From a virus: DNA of 64,000 nucleotides. Both the position numbers and the translations under genes were made by a program. Under the pieces are notes generated by a model. That model did no database searches, was not told the DNA's origin, and saw nothing but the letters and a program-made list of their open reading frames with translations. Each line of letters opens with the position of its first letter. Position 1 is the first letter of the stretch. The stretch covers positions 13,149-77,148 of IMG/VR virus record IMGVR_UViG_3300009496_000005, one strand, 5' to 3'. This document shows positions 3,558 to 63,621 of the stretch, in pieces.

Positions 3558-3947
3558 ATGGTCAATTCCTTACAACAATTCGTAGATACATTTGAAGCAT
3601 TAGGCGATCCTAATGCTATCTATGAATACGTCTTAGACTTCGGTTCAGATACCAACGAAACTATAGAAAGAATACAAGATAACTTTGTTTATGGTTGTCA
3701 GAGTGAAGTCTGGGTCGATGGTATAGAAGAAGCATTAGGTTGGAAGTTTGAACTAGTAAGTGATGCTTACATTGTAAACGGTATAGGTAATATCATGTGT
3801 GACTGTATGAAGGGATTGAGCACTCCTGAGATAGAAGCATTACAATGGGAAGATTTTGCACCACTAGGCAGATACTTTAGTCAACAAAGAAAACAAGGAA
3901 TGCAAGCCATACTTAATAAATGTAAAAAAATAACACGAGGCGAATAA
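3558..3947 (+). CDS. sufE: SufE-family Fe-S cluster sulfur acceptor
   Basis: VYGCQSEVW motif, [12 protein letters not shown]. Confidence 0.8.
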
Positions 3948-12223: not shown

Positions 12224-13150
12224 ATGAAAGAACTTTGGACAGAAAAATATAGACCTTCAAGCATTGAAACTTATGTTTTCAGAGATGATAAACAAAAGCG
12301 ACAGGTAAGTGGTTGGCTTGGAGATGGGGCACTACCACACTTGCTATTCAGTGGTGCTCCAGGAACAGGTAAAACAACATTAGCAAAAGTTTTACTGAAA
12401 GAATTAGATATTGATCCAATGGATGTGTTAGAGATTAATGCATCGAATGAAAACAATGTAGATACTATTCGTAATAAGATAACAAACTTTAGTAGCACAA
12501 TGCCTTTTGGTGATATGAAATATGTATTACTTGATGAGGCTGATTACATTACACCTAATGGACAAGCGGCACTTCGTGGTGTTATGGAAATGTATCATAC
12601 TAGTTGCAGGTTTTTACTGACATGTAATTATTCACAAAGAATTATTCCTGCATTGCATAGTAGATGTCAAGGGTTTCATATTGAAAAACTAGACATACAA
12701 GAGTTCACAGCAAGACTGGCAACTATTTGTATTGAAGAAGATGTTCAACTAGACGGTGAAACATTAGATACTTATGTCCAAGCAACATATCCAGACTTGC
12801 GTAAGAGCATTAACTTAGTGCAACAGAACGTAGTCGATGGTGTATTACAAAAGCCACAAGATGGCGATGGTGCAAGTTCAAGTGATTGGATGCTAAGTGC
12901 TATTGAAATGTTTAAAGGCGGAGACTATAAAGGTGCTAGAACAATGATTTGTAGTCAAGCAAGACCTGAGGAGTATGATGATGTATATAAATTTATGTAT
13001 CGTAACTTAGAACTTTGGGGAACTACAGACTTACAACAAGACCAGGCAGTTGTTATTATTAGAAACGGCATGGCAAAGAGCAGTTTATGTGCTGACCCTG
13101 AGATTAACCTTAGTGCAACACTTATCGAATTACAATTAAATTCAGCATAG
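12224..13150 (+). CDS. sliding-clamp loader subunit (RFC / gp44-like)
   Basis: WTEKYRP, GAPGTGKT, EINAS, LDEAD, SRC motif. Confidence 0.95.
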   Translation: MKELWTEKYRPSSIETYVFRDDKQKRQVSGWLGDGALPHLLFSGAPGTGKTTLAKVLLKELDIDPMDVLEINASNENNVDTIRNKITNFSSTMPFGDMKYVLLDEADYITPNGQAALRGVMEMYHTSCRFLLTCNYSQRIIPALHSRCQGFHIEKLDIQEFTARLATICIEEDVQLDGETLDTYVQATYPDLRKSINLVQQNVVDGVLQKPQDGDGASSSDWMLSAIEMFKGGDYKGARTMICSQARPEEYDDVYKFMYRNLELWGTTDLQQDQAVVIIRNGMAKSSLCADPEINLSATLIELQLNSA

Positions 13151-32791: not shown

Positions 32792-33394
32792 ATGACAGAT
32801 AAATCAAAGATAATTTTAACAGACATAGATGGTGTAGTTCTTAATTGGGAATATGCTTTTGGTGAATATATGGAGTTCCAAGGACACCAACCAGTTGAAG
32901 GACATAACAAGTTTTATTCAGTTAGGCAAAAATATGATTTGCCAACTGATGCATCAGGTGATATTGTAATTAAAACATTTAACGAAAGTGCGGCAATAGG
33001 ATTCCTTCCTCCACTTCGTGATGCACAATACTTCATTAAGAAGTTGCATGAGCAACACCAGTATCAATTTATAGCAATTACAAGTCTAAGTCTTAATCCT
33101 TATTCTCAAAAATTAAGAGAAAAGAACCTTAAAAAGTTGTTTGGAGATAACTGTTTCTTAGAAGTAATCTGCTTAGACACAGGTGCAGACAAGGATGAGA
33201 TACTAGATGTATATGCTAGAGATTATCCTGGAGCATACTGGATTGAGGATAAACCACAGAATGTTGATGTTGGCATTGAATTTGGTCTTAATGGTATTTT
33301 AATGGAGCATGGGCACAATATGTCCTATACAGGCCAAGCAAATGTTGTGGTAAATTGGGAAGAAATTTACAATTTATTAGTTAAAACCGGTTGA
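32792..33394 (+). CDS. HAD-family 5'-nucleotidase-like phosphatase
   Basis: LTDIDGVV, AITS, WIEDK. Confidence 0.8.
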   Translation: MTDKSKIILTDIDGVVLNWEYAFGEYMEFQGHQPVEGHNKFYSVRQKYDLPTDASGDIVIKTFNESAAIGFLPPLRDAQYFIKKLHEQHQYQFIAITSLSLNPYSQKLREKNLKKLFGDNCFLEVICLDTGADKDEILDVYARDYPGAYWIEDKPQNVDVGIEFGLNGILMEHGHNMSYTGQANVVVNWEEIYNLLVKTG

Positions 33395-33420
33395 CAATAC
33401 CTAAAAAGACGTTATACTAT
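33391..33420 (+). promoter_or_regulatory. early sigma70-type promoter
   Basis: GGTTGACA-N16-TATACT. Confidence 0.7.
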
Positions 33421-33458
33421 ATGTATAGTTTAAAAATAAAGTGCTGGGAGGCAATTAC

Positions 33459-34490
33459 ATGAAAAACTTTGTTAAAATTAAAAAGGGTTCTTATCGCAAC
33501 GCCCCAATCGAAAACGCGATATTTCCAGTAGTAAAGCCACTCACCTTTGGTAAGAAAGGTCCTTTTATTACTGTCGATGGTAGTTCGCTTATGGGTGAAG
33601 ACGCAAGTAAAATTAGGGTGCTAGTTAAGTCTCCTTTAGATGTTGTTCCTTCAACTAAAGAAGACTACGAAACATTTATGCCAGTTGAGAAAGAAGAAGT
33701 AGTAGCAGAAACTACTCTAGAGGCTATGGACAGAATCAAAGGTCGTTTTGATATCTTAGATCAAATGACTGATGCAGTTGCTAACGGTGTAGTCCGTGGT
33801 TTGATTGTGTCAGGCCCTCCGGGTGTTGGTAAAAGTTTTGGTGTTGAAACTATACTTGATGAGTATGATGCAATGGCAAAACTATCAGGCAAGCCACCCA
33901 GAACTGAAATAGTTAAAGGTAGCATGACTCCAATTGGTTTGTATCAAACATTGTTTAACAATTCTAACAAAGGTGATATCCTAGTTTTTGATGACTGTGA
34001 TAGTATCTTGTTTGATGAAGTATGTTTGAATATGCTAAAAGCAGTTTTAGACTCTGGTAAGAAAAGATACATTTCTTGGAAAGCAGAGTCCAATGCACTT
34101 CGTAGAGAAGGTATACCTGATAGGTTTGAGTTCAAAGGTGGTGTTATCTTTATTACTAACGTGAACTTTGAAAACGTTCGTTCTAAGAAGATACAAGATC
34201 ACTTAGCGGCACTTATGTCTAGATGTCATTACATTGACTTAGGTTTAGATACTACTGCTGATAAGTTCTTAAGAATTAATCAAATAGTTAGAGATGGTAT
34301 GCTTACTTCATACAAGTTCTCAGATGAACTAAACAAGGATATCATAGACTTTATGATATTAAAGAGTGCAAGGCTTAGAGAAATAAGTCTTAGAATGGTG
34401 CTTAAGATTGCTGACTTGGCTCAAATGAGTCCCAAGACTTGGAAAGAGTTGGCTGAAAGCACTTGTATGACGAGGGTCACTTTTAAGTGA
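33459..34490 (+). CDS. AAA-family ATPase
   Basis: SGPPGVGKS, LVFDDCD, FITN, SRC; SD TGGGAGG. Confidence 0.85.
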   Translation: MKNFVKIKKGSYRNAPIENAIFPVVKPLTFGKKGPFITVDGSSLMGEDASKIRVLVKSPLDVVPSTKEDYETFMPVEKEEVVAETTLEAMDRIKGRFDILDQMTDAVANGVVRGLIVSGPPGVGKSFGVETILDEYDAMAKLSGKPPRTEIVKGSMTPIGLYQTLFNNSNKGDILVFDDCDSILFDEVCLNMLKAVLDSGKKRYISWKAESNALRREGIPDRFEFKGGVIFITNVNFENVRSKKIQDHLAALMSRCHYIDLGLDTTADKFLRINQIVRDGMLTSYKFSDELNKDIIDFMILKSARLREISLRMVLKIADLAQMSPKTWKELAESTCMTRVTFK

Positions 34491-34501
34491 TCCACGTTTG
34501 G

Positions 34502-34600
34502 ACTCATACTAAATATTAGTATGGGTTCCCCCCTAGTGTTCAATATCCTCCCACATTGAACACTTTAGAGACCCCCTAGTTCTTAGGGGGTTTCGCTTTT
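34502..34600 (+). ncRNA. structured 3'-UTR / candidate sRNA with anti-SD loop plus terminator
   Basis: Hairpin 34502-34526; perfect 10-bp stem 34535-44/34555-64 with loop ATCCTCCCAC; terminator 34568-34600. Confidence 0.55.
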
Positions 34601-34635: not shown

Positions 34636-34674
34636 TATTGTATAAGTTAAATAATTAGGTAGGTAAATAATTTA

Positions 34675-35025
34675 ATGATAAAGGAAAGAAACACAACTGT
34701 ATTAGCCTCAGACTATCAAAGCACTGAGCAACTTCAAAAATTTATTAAACATTGCACTGGTGCAAAAATGACTCCTGTTAAAGGTAAGCATGATGCATTT
34801 TGGGTTAGTGGTGATAAACGTGGTGACTACTACGAGCAGAAATATTATAAAATTGTATTTGGTCCAGTTACCCAAGTTTCATATAGTAACGGTAGAACTG
34901 AAAAATCAGGTTATGGTTTTGATATTCAAACTGTAGGCGACCTTAATGGTTGGCAGTTAATGGGCGAGTATCGTAAAATGATTAAAGAAGCAATGGCTGA
35001 ATTTAAACAGAAGGAGACTGCATAA
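34675..35025 (+). CDS. hypothetical early protein
   Basis: ORF after promoter. Confidence 0.65.
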   Translation: MIKERNTTVLASDYQSTEQLQKFIKHCTGAKMTPVKGKHDAFWVSGDKRGDYYEQKYYKIVFGPVTQVSYSNGRTEKSGYGFDIQTVGDLNGWQLMGEYRKMIKEAMAEFKQKETA

Positions 35026-57999: not shown

Positions 58000-58498
58000 A
58001 GTCGTTAAAGACGTCTTAGACGTCGTATACGCAACAGAACTGTATAACAAGTGTATTGACATGCCTTTACAACGAACTAGTTTAGACACCTGGAAAGACT
58101 ATTTAACTGACTCTAAGAAGGCACCTGCTATACTATTAAACGACTTAGATACCAATGATCAAGTTAAAATACTAGAAGTATTTGAAGAACAATTTGGTGC
58201 CTTTAATAAAGCATACCTAACTGTCCAACGTTGGGAAAAGGGGTGCTACATACCATGGCATAACGACCAAAAGTATGATTTTAGTGCTACAATTTATTTA
58301 AACCCTGAATGGGAAGCAGATGATGGTGGTCAATTTGTTTATACAGAAGACGATGACTTTTATGGTGTAAACCATTCGTATACTCCCCAATTTAACTCTG
58401 CTGTAATGCTAGAAGACGGCCATTTTCATTGTGTTACTCCTATAGGTTCTTTAGATAAAACAAGAGTAACTATCCAATTCTTTGCCTATAAAGGTTAA
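57989..58498 (+). CDS. 2OG-Fe(II) oxygenase
   Basis: PWHND, YLNPEW...DGG, HCVTP, RVTIQFF; GTG start after AGGAG. Confidence 0.85.
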   Translation: MGIKVVKDVLDVVYATELYNKCIDMPLQRTSLDTWKDYLTDSKKAPAILLNDLDTNDQVKILEVFEEQFGAFNKAYLTVQRWEKGCYIPWHNDQKYDFSATIYLNPEWEADDGGQFVYTEDDDFYGVNHSYTPQFNSAVMLEDGHFHCVTPIGSLDKTRVTIQFFAYKG

Positions 58499-58572
58499 CA
58501 TACCTTTAAATTCTGCTATAATTTATACATAAAGGTTGACATACCTTTAAATTCTGCTATAATTTATACATA
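58488..58572 (+). repeat. 41-bp tandem duplication of an early promoter
   Basis: ATAAAGGTT(A/G)ACATACCTTTAAATTCTGCTATAATTTATAC x2, one mismatch. Confidence 0.9.
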
Positions 58573-58592
58573 ATTAAATTTTAGGAGTAATT

Positions 58593-58772
58593 ATGTCAGA
58601 CCCATATACATTCAGTTATGATGTCACCAGAGATTTCAAACTAAATTTCACCGAATGGTTTCAACTTAACACTGAAGAACGTAGTGCATACCAAGAAACA
58701 CCTTATTCACCAGAAGAAGGTCTTAAAGTTTTTAGAGAAATGTATGGTAATTATGAGGAAAATAGCAAATAG
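58593..58772 (+). CDS. small early protein (59 aa)
   Basis: TAGGAG SD; MSDPYTFSYD.. Confidence 0.65.
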   Translation: MSDPYTFSYDVTRDFKLNFTEWFQLNTEERSAYQETPYSPEEGLKVFREMYGNYEENSK

Positions 58773-58775
58773 TGG

Positions 58776-58803
58776 TTGACAAGATCATAAAAGATGCTAT
58801 TAT
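58776..58803 (+). promoter_or_regulatory. early sigma70-type promoter
   Basis: GGTTGACA-N16-TATTAT with TG extension. Confidence 0.7.
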
Positions 58804-58841
58804 ATATACATAGTTAGGTAAAAAGTTAGGAGTAACATATT

Positions 58842-59948
58842 ATGGATACATTACAAGTTAGACCAGCAGAAGTCAAACCAATCACTCTGCGAGCCATGAA
58901 GGCAAAAAGACCAATCTTTATCTGGGGAGCACCAGGTATTGGTAAGTCTGAATTAGTTCAAGGTATTGTAGACTCAGGTGAGTTAGGCAATGCTGTTATG
59001 ATAGACATGCGTTTGGCACTTATGGAGCCAACAGATTTGCGTGGCTATCCTTTTAGAAACCCAGAAACAAACACAATGGAATGGGCACCAGCGGCAGATC
59101 TTCCTACACAGGAAATGGCTGATGCATACGATACTATTGTTTTGTTCTTAGACGAGCTCAACTCTGCACCTCCAAGTGTGCAGGCCGCGGCTTACCAATT
59201 GGTTCTTAATAACAAAATTGGTCAATATACTTTGCCAGACAATGTGAGAATTGTTGCCGCAGGTAACAGAGAGACTGACAGAGGTGTCACATTTAGAATG
59301 CCAAGTCCTTTGGCAAACAGATTTAGACACATTAACATGGATGTGAACTTTGAAGATTGGCAACAATGGGCAATCAACAATGACGTTCATCCTGATGTTA
59401 TTGGTTACCTAAGTTTTGCAAAGCAGGATTTGTTTAACTTCGATCCAAAAACAAGTTCACAAGCATTCGCAACTCCAAGGAGTTGGGTATTTACCTCAGA
59501 CATACTTAAGGTAGATGGCTTTGAAACAGCACCGGCCAGAGAGCAAAAGGCAGAAATTGCAGGTGCTATTGGTGAAGGCATGGCAATCAAGTTTATTGAG
59601 CACAGAAGAATTGCTTCTAACTTGCCTAATCCTTCAGACGTAATTGACGGCAAGGTTAAAAAACTAGACAATAAGATATCAGAAGAGATATCTGCAAAAT
59701 ATAGTTTAGTTGTTAGTATTGCATACGAACTAAATGACATCTACAAAGAAACAGGTGTTGATGAGAAGTTTGCTAAAATGCTTAACAATACTGTAAGGTT
59801 TAGTTTCGATAACTTTGAGCCTGAGATGGTAGTGTTCTTGTTCAAGACTATAATGAAAGATTATAAGATCACATTTAATGTAAGAACTACACTTGATAAA
59901 GATCTTAAAGATACATTCTCTGAGAGGTATGTAAAGTATATCACATAA
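58842..59948 (+). CDS. MoxR-like AAA+ ATPase
   Basis: WGAPGIGKS, LFLDE, VAAGNR, LANRF, TPRSW. Confidence 0.9.
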   Translation: MDTLQVRPAEVKPITLRAMKAKRPIFIWGAPGIGKSELVQGIVDSGELGNAVMIDMRLALMEPTDLRGYPFRNPETNTMEWAPAADLPTQEMADAYDTIVLFLDELNSAPPSVQAAAYQLVLNNKIGQYTLPDNVRIVAAGNRETDRGVTFRMPSPLANRFRHINMDVNFEDWQQWAINNDVHPDVIGYLSFAKQDLFNFDPKTSSQAFATPRSWVFTSDILKVDGFETAPAREQKAEIAGAIGEGMAIKFIEHRRIASNLPNPSDVIDGKVKKLDNKISEEISAKYSLVVSIAYELNDIYKETGVDEKFAKMLNNTVRFSFDNFEPEMVVFLFKTIMKDYKITFNVRTTLDKDLKDTFSERYVKYIT

Positions 59949-60045
59949 GGGAGTAAGGGACACGTTTTAAAATCCTTGTGCGCCTACCTATGTTACTCCC
60001 TACCTAAGCACAAGGTGAGTGCCCTGGAAACAGGGCACTTTTTTT
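59949..60045 (+). ncRNA. structured 3'-UTR / candidate sRNA with anti-RBS loop plus terminator
   Basis: Stem CCTTGTGC/GCACAAGG enclosing a 26-nt loop complementary to its own RBS; terminator AGTGCCCTG-GAAA-CAGGGCACT-T run. Confidence 0.6.
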
Positions 60046-60072
60046 ATTCTAAACAACAAAAGGAAAAATAGT

Positions 60073-60261
60073 TTGCGATACTTAGATTACGAGTTTACTA
60101 TTCACGAAGATTGTATTGAGTTTGATAAAGAATTAACAATAGAATCTGTAGAAAAATCCGGAAACTTTAAACAAGGAGATGAGTTCGTTTTGATCGTGTT
60201 GGCGGGAAAGGTCAAGTTGATTAAAGCAGATAAACTGAAGAATCATACTCTTTATGCCTGA
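60073..60261 (+). CDS. hypothetical protein
   Basis: AAGGA SD + TTG start; stop overlaps first 6 nt of tRNA-Leu. Confidence 0.45.
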   Translation: MRYLDYEFTIHEDCIEFDKELTIESVEKSGNFKQGDEFVLIVLAGKVKLIKADKLKNHTLYA

Positions 60262-60342
60262 GTGGTGGAATAGGTAGACACAAGGGACTTAAAATCCCTC
60301 GCCAGTAATGGCGTGCCGGTTCGACTCCGGCCTCAGGCACCA
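60256..60342 (+). tRNA. tRNA-Leu(TAA)
   Basis: Cloverleaf, long variable arm, anticodon CT-TAA-AA, GGTTCGA, CCA. Confidence 0.95.
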
Positions 60343-60348
60343 TTTAAT

Positions 60349-60425
60349 CTCCCTGTAGCTCAACTGGATAGAGCAACGGCCTTCTAAGCCGTAGGTTGCA
60401 GGTTCGACTCCTGCCGGGGAGGCCA
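60349..60425 (+). tRNA. tRNA-Arg(TCT)
   Basis: ACGGC-CTTCTAA-GCCGT anticodon arm, GGTTCGA, CCA. Confidence 0.95.
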
Positions 60426-60429
60426 ATAA

Positions 60430-60506
60430 GGGCCTATAGCATAATTGGTTAATGCACCCGACTCATAATCGGTAGATTCTAGGTTCAAGTCCTAGTAGGC
60501 CCACCA
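60430..60506 (+). tRNA. tRNA-CAT, probably Ile2 (lysidine) rather than Met
   Basis: CCGA-CTCATAA-TCGG arm, paired G1-C72 (not initiator), CCA. Confidence 0.85.
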
Positions 60507-60515
60507 AATAAAAGG

Positions 60516-60543
60516 TTGACAATCACCCTTTAGATGCTATAAT
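60516..60543 (+). promoter_or_regulatory. early sigma70-type promoter
   Basis: GGTTGACA-N16-TATAAT with TG extension. Confidence 0.75.
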
Positions 60544-60575
60544 ATATATATTAGTTAGGAAAACAAGGGTAGTTT

Positions 60576-61904
60576 ATGACAGACACATTAGAAGCAAAAA
60601 CAGAATCCGCAAAAGATAGAGTTGCAAAACCTGTTAAAGAGATTCCAGAAACAACTTTAACTTCAGCAGAAGTTGAAGATCGTCTTATTAAAGCAAGAAT
60701 TGAAATGCTGATGTCAGCACCTTTCTTTGGTAATCTTGCTACACGTTTAAAATTAAAAGATGCTACAGCATGGTGCCCTACACTTGCTACAGACGGCAAG
60801 TATTTTTATTACAATAGAAACTTTGTTGCCGCAATGAGCGACGGTGAATGTGTGTTTGGTATGGGCCATGAGATACTGCATTGTGTATATGATCACTTTG
60901 ATGTTGCTCGTAGAGGTGATAGAGATCCCAGGCTTTGGAATATAGCAAATGACTATGTTATTAATGCAGACTTAATTGATGCTAACATAGGAGAGCAAAT
61001 TAAACTTGTTGATATATGTTTTGATTGGAAATACAGAGGTCAAGTTTCAGAAGAGATATACGACGACTTATTTAAACAGGCTGAAGAAGAAGGCCGTGTT
61101 ATTAATGTTGAACCTTTAGACATGCACCTAGATAGAACAGAAGGTGATGATGAGGGTGCAGGTGAGAATAAAGCAAACGGTGATTCAGGCGATGAAGATG
61201 GACCTGCAAAATATACTGCTGAAGAGAAAGAGAACATTAAACAAGAATTCCAGAATGCAGTAATGCAATCTGCTAAGGCGGCTGGTGCTGGTAACTTACC
61301 AGGTGGTGTTAAAAGAATGTTAGACAAACTTCTTAACCCTACACTAGACTGGCGTGAACTACTTGCTATGCAGATCCAAAGCACTATTAGAAGTGACTAC
61401 ACATATCAAACCCCAAGTCGTAAAGGACAAGACAGTGGGTTCTACTTGCCAGGTATGGACAGAGAAACAACTATTGATATTGTTGCGGCACTTGATATGT
61501 CAGGTTCTATTATGGACGAAATGGCAATGGACTTCTTAAGTGAGTTCAAAGGCATTATGGACCAATACACAGACTTTAACATTCACCTTGTATGCTTTGA
61601 TACAGAGATTCATAATCCACAAGTGTTCACACAGAACAATATGGAAGAGTTTATGAACTACGAATTAGGTGGCGGTGGCGGCACAGACTTTGATTGTGTC
61701 TTTAACTGGATGAAAGAAGAAGGCATCCAGCCTAAGAAGTTAGTTATGTTTACAGATGGTTACCCTTGGGATAGTTGGGGTGATGAGTCATACTGTGATA
61801 CATTGTTTATTGTTCATGGTGGAGGCTATGGTGGTAGGTCACCAGAAGCACCTTTCGGCATAACTGTTCCATACCAAAGAGATGAAACAGGTTTACAAGG
61901 ATGA
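60576..61904 (+). CDS. HEXXH metallopeptidase-like + VWA domain protein (DUF2201-like), MoxR partner
   Basis: TLATDG, HEILH, WNIA.DYVIN, DMSGS MIDAS, GGGTDF, FTDG. Confidence 0.85.
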   Translation: MTDTLEAKTESAKDRVAKPVKEIPETTLTSAEVEDRLIKARIEMLMSAPFFGNLATRLKLKDATAWCPTLATDGKYFYYNRNFVAAMSDGECVFGMGHEILHCVYDHFDVARRGDRDPRLWNIANDYVINADLIDANIGEQIKLVDICFDWKYRGQVSEEIYDDLFKQAEEEGRVINVEPLDMHLDRTEGDDEGAGENKANGDSGDEDGPAKYTAEEKENIKQEFQNAVMQSAKAAGAGNLPGGVKRMLDKLLNPTLDWRELLAMQIQSTIRSDYTYQTPSRKGQDSGFYLPGMDRETTIDIVAALDMSGSIMDEMAMDFLSEFKGIMDQYTDFNIHLVCFDTEIHNPQVFTQNNMEEFMNYELGGGGGTDFDCVFNWMKEEGIQPKKLVMFTDGYPWDSWGDESYCDTLFIVHGGGYGGRSPEAPFGITVPYQRDETGLQG

Positions 61905-63586: not shown

Positions 63587-63621
63587 ATATGTATAGTTTA
63601 ATTAAAAAGGTAGGAGAGTTT

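Follow-up and report, generated by a model that had tools for sequence, protein, structure and literature searches.

A conserved 3′-UTR hairpin with a loop complementary to the ribosome-binding region of its own MoxR-like ATPase gene in marine jumbo phages

The DNA analyzed here, referred to as the window, is a stretch of 64,000 nucleotides (positions 13,149 to 77,148) of the IMG/VR record IMGVR_UViG_3300009496_000005, a 77-kb sequence of an uncultured marine virus with a GC content of 35.7% and an estimated completeness of 21%, of which the window is a fragment. The phage group to which it belongs is that of dsDNA jumbo phages of marine samples. No close DNA relatives of the window were found in the cultured-phage collection, and the nearest cultured protein relative of the MoxR-like AAA+ ATPase considered here is the ATPase of the Pseudomonas jumbo phage PA5oct, with 50% amino acid identity. 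The gene and its flanking elements, numbered from the first letter of the window, are the following.

58776 to 58803, + strand: sigma70-type promoter of the MoxR-like gene, TTGACA-16-TATTAT, TG-extended, matching 11 of 12 consensus positions
58814 to 58820, + strand: leader box TTAGGTA near the 5′ end, complement of the 3′ part of the loop (60001-60007)
58829 to 58839, + strand: extended Shine-Dalgarno (SD) box GGAGTAACATA, 11-nt perfect complement of loop positions 59989-59999
58842 to 59948, + strand: MoxR-like AAA+ ATPase gene, 368 aa (Pfam AAA_5/AAA_3/AAA)
59948 to 59956, + strand: "decoy" AGGGAGTAA, 9-nt complement of the loop, closest lineage only
59974 to 60015, + strand: 3′-UTR hairpin with 8-bp arms, CCTTGTGC (59974-59981) and GCACAAGG (60008-60015)
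59982 to 60007, + strand: hairpin loop, 26 nt, pyrimidine-rich, with the invariant 24-nt core CCTACCTATGTTACTCCCTACCTA
60017 to 60045, + strand: intrinsic terminator of the MoxR unit (60017-60040 and a T run)

The MoxR transcript is predicted to start at about 58810, which gives a leader of about 32 nt; the SD box ends 2 nt ahead of the ATG at 58842, and the stop codon TAA (59946-59948) is followed by a 3′ UTR of about 95 nt that consists of the hairpin and then the terminator. A consensus promoter and an intrinsic terminator thus bracket the gene and predict one shared transcript, and as read from the sequence the MoxR-like gene is a single-gene transcription unit composed of promoter, leader, ORF, hairpin and terminator. 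An equivalent promoter precedes the gene in most relatives, and the terminator occupies the same place in all relatives. The stem, the loop, the terminator and both complements, of 11 and 7 nt, had been described in an earlier sequence-only reading of the window, and all of its strings and coordinates for them proved correct.

Several features were observed around this unit. The genes for tRNA-Leu(taa), tRNA-Arg(tct) and tRNA-Met(cat) lie 3′ of the MoxR terminator (60046-60506) and have no consensus promoter of their own; on this arrangement, their expression may depend on read-through of the MoxR terminator. A small ORF with a TTG start (60073-60261), amid the same terminator and tRNA stretch, is not conserved in relatives. 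Ahead of a 59-aa ORF at 58593, a promoter module of about 41 nt is duplicated in tandem (58495-58563), with its two copies matching the sigma70 consensus at 11 and 12 of 12 positions. Elsewhere in the window, the gene starts at 3558, 8099, 18315 and 46796 are preceded by a consensus TTGACA/TATAAT promoter with only about 7 nt between its −10 hexamer and the ATG, and the mRNAs of these genes may be leaderless.

The segment TATGTTACTCC of the MoxR loop (59989-59999) is the exact complement of the SD box, and TACCTAA (60001-60007) complements the leader box TTAGGTA over 7 nt. The mark of an icaR-type element, a 3′-UTR motif that complements the SD region of its own message, is therefore present in the window with 11 + 7 nt. 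No longer complement of the loop exists on the + strand of the 64-kb window than the 11-mer, which coincides with the SD of the loop's own gene; among the non-cognate pairs of leader and 3′ UTR in the window (22 × 21), only 1 of 462 reached 11 nt. By duplex energy, the own MoxR leader came first among about 90 window leaders, and only two of 22 units in the window, MoxR and a second ATPase gene (AAA2), had an own leader and an own 3′ UTR that mutually ranked first or second. The match between loop and SD exceeds chance. By our own estimate, an AT-rich sequence of 64 kb should contain many 11-nt inverted repeats with a spacing of about 1 kb when position is ignored, which would favor a fortuitous match or a DNA-level inverted repeat flanking the gene, as at a recombination site or the end of a mobile element; the match, however, falls exactly on an SD and on a hairpin loop.

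Other measures taken within the window were weak. Loop-complementary 8-mers were not enriched window-wide (35 observed versus 29 ± 13.5 for shuffled loops). Energy scans gave stronger chance duplexes, with G-U pairs, in G-rich coding stretches, and window-wide duplex energy was discarded as a statistic for this reason. The minimum free energy fold of the single sequence preferred a pairing of the loop with the decoy (−19.1 kcal/mol) over the stem listed above (−11.6 kcal/mol). Because energy, 8-mer enrichment and the single-sequence fold are weak here, the case for the loop and the leader rests on comparative evidence, and the validity of the stem is derived from covariation among the aligned sequences, not from energy.

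Immediately 3′ of the MoxR stop codon, GGGAGTAA (59949-59956) forms most of the 9-nt decoy, which according to the fold computation is able to sequester the loop in the window. In the sequence-only reading, this segment was a decoy SD that terminating ribosomes would mask, so that the anti-SD loop is set free in a translation-coupled switch. The 9-nt match and its capacity to pair with the loop were borne out for the window, but the full match occurs in the window only; a 6-nt remnant is seen in L001, L003, L004 and L012, and the decoy is missing from most of the 25 distinct relatives. Unmasking by terminating ribosomes therefore cannot be the conserved mechanism, and the switch was abandoned in that role. 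Judged by this distribution, the decoy is outside the conserved device and may tune the element in the window's lineage.

The conservation of the hairpin was followed in 47 loci obtained by searching IMG/VR with the ATPase protein. In all loci with at least 52% amino acid identity, the stop codon and the terminator flank a hairpin whose loop is pyrimidine-rich. The hairpin is absent from MoxR loci at or below 50% identity (L038-L047), and in the Pseudomonas phage PA5oct the ATPase gene is followed by a terminator only, with no hairpin. Hairpin alignments made with MAFFT misaligned the 3′ arm and were dropped in favor of a covariance-model alignment; the model (R1), which was built from three sequences, found the hairpin at all main-clade loci. 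In the covariance-model alignment, 96% of stem cells are paired, compensatory changes occur at six of the eight stem pairs (alignment A5), and none of 500 shuffles reached the observed stem covariation, while shifting the stem partner along the alignment abolishes pairing. Several stem pairs are G-U, on the + strand only, and the structure is therefore one of RNA of the gene's strand. In distant clades, wholly different stems enclose related loops.

The loop itself is conserved to a striking degree, since 24 loci with ORFs of 70-92% DNA identity (median 73%) all have exactly the same 24-nt core. An exact-match scan of 2.9 million viral contigs in IMG/VR found the core in 32 contigs, each with a single copy that invariably follows a MoxR homologue at a distance of 20-60 nt on the same strand. 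By these sequence comparisons, the hairpin is under selection, and selection on the loop is stronger than that on the protein. Conservation in dozens of phages and the G-U pairs of the stem, which indicate RNA, both speak against a chance match and against a DNA-level repeat. Contigs from RNA libraries include low-depth parts of the MoxR gene in four marine or salt-marsh runs; a few such contigs of relatives end within the loop (at about 59996-59998), and contigs of this kind are silent on RNA ends, strand and level.

Twenty-four invariant nucleotides are more than pairing with a drifting leader needs, and CCUCC, which forms the core of the 16S anti-SD, occurs in distant loops. Both points would suit a loop that serves as a binding site for a protein or the ribosome (e.g., as a mimic of the 16S 3′ end) or for some other RNA partner, with its resemblance to the leader as a by-product of anti-SD-like composition. 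We consider this explanation very improbable, as the complementarity reaches far past the SD core and takes in a second box, near the 5′ end, which varies in step with the loop. In addition, the 18-mer of the loop and its complement gave zero exact matches in 185,579 cellular genomes, which means that there is no host copy or exact host target among them, and no Rfam family matched the hairpin at the gathering threshold. The only overlapping Rfam match, to sau-6072, scored 27.5 bits against a threshold of 50 and lies mostly over the terminator. The complement of the loop presumably resembles the 16S 1497-1510 region, and this resemblance was set aside because it is lost in distant loop variants.

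Comparison of the relatives revealed that leader and loop have changed together in several lineages, as in the following paired changes.

L021: leader AGGAGTAGTA, loop TACTACTCCT
L029, first change: leader TTAGTTAG, loop CTAACTAA
L029, second change: leader GGTAGGAG, loop CTCCTACC
L030: leader GTAGGAGTAA, loop TTACTCCTAC
L032: leader TATGTAGGT, loop ACCTACATA

The pairing has two parts. The SD box is matched by the middle of the loop, and a second box, only a few nucleotides away from where the transcript is predicted to start, by the 3′ (or 5′) part of the loop; 8-11 leader nucleotides between the two sites are left unpaired. The 5′ box co-changes with the loop in L021, L029 and L032. Across six loop types, the sum of cognate loop-leader energies is below that of all 265 derangements and within the lowest 0.3% of all permutations (p = 0.003). 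When ranked against the other leaders of the window, which include ordinary AGGAG sites, the own leader of 20 loci placed between first and tenth out of 90, so that the complementarity is more than that of a generic anti-SD. Part of it is nevertheless generic, because any CUCC loop matches any GGAG SD.

The loop of the main clade is invariant, and its leaders vary: the SD box is AGGAGTAAC or AGGTAGG, and the box close to the 5′ end is ATAGGT or TTAGGTA. Each of these alternatives has a complement in the loop. An invariant loop combined with varying leaders means that pairing with the own leader alone is insufficient to explain the invariance. Covariation of loop and leader, which the sequence-only reading had put forward as a check, was accordingly found in part, in the six loop types and in L021, L029, L030 and L032, but not in the main clade. 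What that reading had seen in one sequence, a hairpin loop antisense to the leader of its own gene at two sites, does hold more widely, as the hairpin is conserved and the complementarity is kept across related phages. Nested cofolding against shuffled leaders was clearly better for the true leader only in the window and L021 and marginally better in L003, L029 and L032, with no gain in L005, L013, L016, L020, L023 and L030; nested folding is unable to capture a loop paired to a linear strand, or kissing loops. In a 250-kb relative with crude ORF calls, the MoxR unit was second of 107 for pairing between own leader and own 3′ UTR; the remaining top units look like miscalled ORFs, and the start of AAA2 was also miscalled, so that no further instances are claimed. 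Separately, the MoxR leader of L016 and L017 (2976-3003) can fold as an AU stem with AGGUAAGGAG in its loop, which might allow a loop-loop kissing interaction with the 3′ hairpin; the same L016 leader is repeated ahead of a downstream gene (L016 4915-4929).

A second pair was found at the AAA2 gene of the window, whose unit spans from promoter to terminator (33391-34600).

33391 to 33418, + strand: AAA2 promoter
33445 to 33451, + strand: AAA2 SD box TGGGAGG (in the context cTGGGAGGc)
33459 to 34490, + strand: AAA2, the second AAA ATPase gene, 343 aa (Pfam AAA)
34535 to 34564, + strand: AAA2 3′-UTR hairpin with 10-bp arms (34535-34544 and 34555-34564)
34545 to 34554, + strand: AAA2 loop ATCCTCCCAC with the anti-SD box
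34573 to 34590 and a T run, + strand: AAA2 terminator
AAA2 pair: leader/SD GUGGGAGG, 3′ element CCUCCCAC

As at the MoxR gene, the terminator has the GC-rich stem followed by a T run of Rho-independent termination. The sequences of the AAA2 pair, GTGGGAG(G) at the SD and (C)CTCCCAC in the 3′ UTR, differ from those of the MoxR pair, which argues for self-targeting over a generic anti-SD RNA. In all 57 distinct related AAA2 loci, CTCCCAC is found within 100 nt of the stop codon and GTGGGAG or TGGGAGG in the leader, against a background of only two CTCCCAC in the remaining 202 kb of these loci. The box lies in a hairpin loop in about two thirds of the loci, where the stem covaries and its several variants all pair, and it stands unpaired, 5-11 nt after the stop codon, in about one third. 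Since the box sometimes occurs without a hairpin, the conserved item is the complementary box itself; because both boxes are invariant, the evidence from AAA2 is one of conservation, not covariation. The position of the 3′ box also shifts relative to the stop codon, which further counts against a DNA-level repeat. Taking together the stem covariation, the single non-cognate pair among 462 and the 57 of 57 AAA2 loci, chance and a DNA inverted repeat were rejected as explanations and are given almost no weight.

Upstream of the AAA2 anti-SD hairpin, a small hairpin was observed (arms 34505-34511 and 34517-34523) with TAAATA in its loop. It is adjoined by a conserved C-run, GGTTCCCCCCTAG (within 34505-34536), that resembles the 5′ arm of the terminator; from this resemblance, the C-run could compete for the 3′ arm of the AAA2 terminator.

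Whether the MoxR element also reaches other messages is a question raised by the gene that usually accompanies MoxR and by several further leaders of the window.

60516 to 60543, + strand: promoter of the DUF2201 partner gene
60551 to 60572, + strand: leader of the partner gene, TTAGTTAGG ... AAGGGTAG, candidate trans target, rank 2 of 89 leaders
60576 to 61904, + strand: DUF2201 metallopeptidase/VWA-like partner gene (Pfam DUF2201_N, 3e-38; DUF2201, 8e-16)

The DUF2201 gene, the usual partner of MoxR, lies 3′ of the tRNA genes and has its own promoter. It was also observed that in this phage group a terminator and a separate promoter part the DUF2201/VWA gene from the MoxR gene, and that in the distant relatives L041-L044 the DUF2201/VWA gene directly follows a hairpin. 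The leader of the partner gene and the promoter-proximal leaders of the genes at 34675, 58593 and 63622 share the motifs of the MoxR leader, and the loop matches that the sequence-only reading had listed in these other early leaders (34655-34663, 58584-58590 and 63608-63614) were confirmed as real.

These matches are the basis of an alternative in which the hairpin and terminator form a stable 3′-UTR-derived sRNA that acts mainly in trans on sigma70-driven early leaders, with MoxR, the DUF2201 partner and the genes at 34675, 58593 and 63622 as targets, and whose accumulation would constitute an RNA-based early switch. Such an sRNA is compatible with action in cis, and we rate it as unlikely to be the main function. 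The invariance of the 24-nt loop in the face of varying leaders fits a constraint from multiple targets, and the loop can be divided into three modules, the complements of TTAGGTAGG, GGAGTAAC and ACATAGGTAGG, which jointly cover the alternative SD and 5′ boxes of the sister leaders. Partner-gene leaders rank 1-11 of 89 for pairing with the loop, a downstream gene in L005, L015, L016 and L018 has the same leader as MoxR, and of the 22 long loop complements in the window, 4 are no more than 15 nt away from a start codon. Against this, the cognate specificity of the loop for partner leaders is not significant (p ~ 0.10), complementary 8-mers show no window-wide enrichment, the own leader is the strongest match, and the AAA2 pair is gene-specific with another sequence, which argues for self-targeting. 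The suggestion of the sequence-only reading that other early mRNAs are shut off as well is thus favored by the ranks of the partner leaders and weakened by the specificity and enrichment tests; with p ~ 0.10 for the partners, trans action is plausible but unproven.

Considering the comparative evidence together with the precedent of icaR, we favor with moderate confidence the reading that the 3′ UTR of the MoxR mRNA pairs with its own leader, hides the ribosome-binding site and so limits translation of the message. In this mechanism, the 3′-UTR hairpin would present its pyrimidine-rich loop, which would base-pair with two sites in the message's own leader, the SD box (11 bp in the window) and the 5′ box (7 bp). 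The ribosome-binding site would thereby be concealed, so that the finished transcript throttles its own translation. The pairing could be intramolecular, or it could involve separate copies of the message or of its 3′ fragments. As for timing, ribosomes would probably load while the 1.1-kb ORF is being transcribed, which is possible because the anti-SD is transcribed last and would appear only at the end. Limitation of dose would be a sensible purpose, because both genes encode AAA+ ATPases and stand behind near-consensus promoters.

The same pairing of 5′ and 3′ ends could instead protect the mRNA, for example by shielding the 5′ end and the SD from ribonucleases that depend on the 5′ end or cut at the SD, as in hbs. 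One of the pairing sites is only a few nucleotides from the predicted 5′ end, and a stabilizing interaction of 5′ and 3′ UTRs has a reported precedent (PMC5737220). We hold stabilization to be improbable, given that the longest and best conserved helix spans the SD up to 2 nt from the AUG and should block the 30S subunit, and that AAA2 is matched at the SD box only. That the pairing occurs in vivo, and that it represses rather than stabilizes, is what we infer.

A wider proposal is that 3′ anti-SD hairpins are a general device of these phages, matched to each strongly promoted early AAA+ ATPase message, and that the MoxR hairpin would in addition persist as a stable 3′ fragment and silence a few early leaders in trans, the one of the DUF2201 partner among them, as a phage-encoded, protein-free timer of the early phase; we regard this as rather doubtful. 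If the self-limiting mechanism is confirmed, it would mean that large phages use a built-in RNA brake to limit the dose of AAA+ ATPases that are strongly promoted and possibly toxic, and the elements would represent compact, portable modules for limiting translation. Very few cases are known in which a bacterial mRNA is controlled by pairing of its own 3′ UTR with its SD, and icaR is the reference; our literature search did not find such a 3′-UTR anti-SD element described for phages. The present case is an unusually clean one for comparative analysis, with a loop more conserved than the protein, a stem that covaries, a leader that follows the loop and a second, independent pair.

In icaR of Staphylococcus aureus, the 3′ UTR contains an anti-SD motif that pairs with the message's own SD region, by which the initiation complex is blocked and a substrate for RNase III is created (Ruiz de los Mozos et al., 2013; PMC3868564). 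The phage element resembles icaR in that a single-gene unit carries a C/U-rich 3′ box complementary to its own SD region. The sequences, however, are unrelated, the phage 3′ UTR is short (about 95 nt), and the anti-SD is placed in the loop of a covarying hairpin directly ahead of the terminator. Moreover, the phage pairing is bipartite, involving a 5′ box and the SD, and there are two genes in one genome, each with its own pair. In hbs of Bacillus subtilis, base-pairing between the 5′ and 3′ UTRs of the mRNA is reported to govern ribonuclease access and stability (PMC5737220). The two mRNA ends are complementary in both systems, whereas in the phage element the SD itself is covered.

The bacterial sRNAs CpxQ, DapZ and SdhX are derived from 3′ UTRs and act on other mRNAs, usually with Hfq and processing by RNase E. 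Similarly, the phage element has a conserved seed just upstream of the mRNA's own terminator, and a stable 3′ fragment is conceivable; in contrast to these sRNAs, its best target is the parent mRNA. In RNAIII and RsaE of Firmicutes, hairpin loops with UCCC or CUCC pair with SD regions, but these RNAs are produced from independent sRNA genes and have many targets. The phage loop shares with them a C-rich motif aimed at the SD, and differs in being a cis-encoded 3′-UTR element with extended, gene-specific complementarity.

Among phages, sib of lambda, which acts on int, is an RNase III hairpin with no pairing to the SD, and the Min Jou interaction of the ssRNA phage MS2 lies inside coding RNA and is opened by translation. 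Like both of these, the MoxR hairpin is a phage element positioned 3′ of, or far from, the start of the gene, where it would exert post-transcriptional control.
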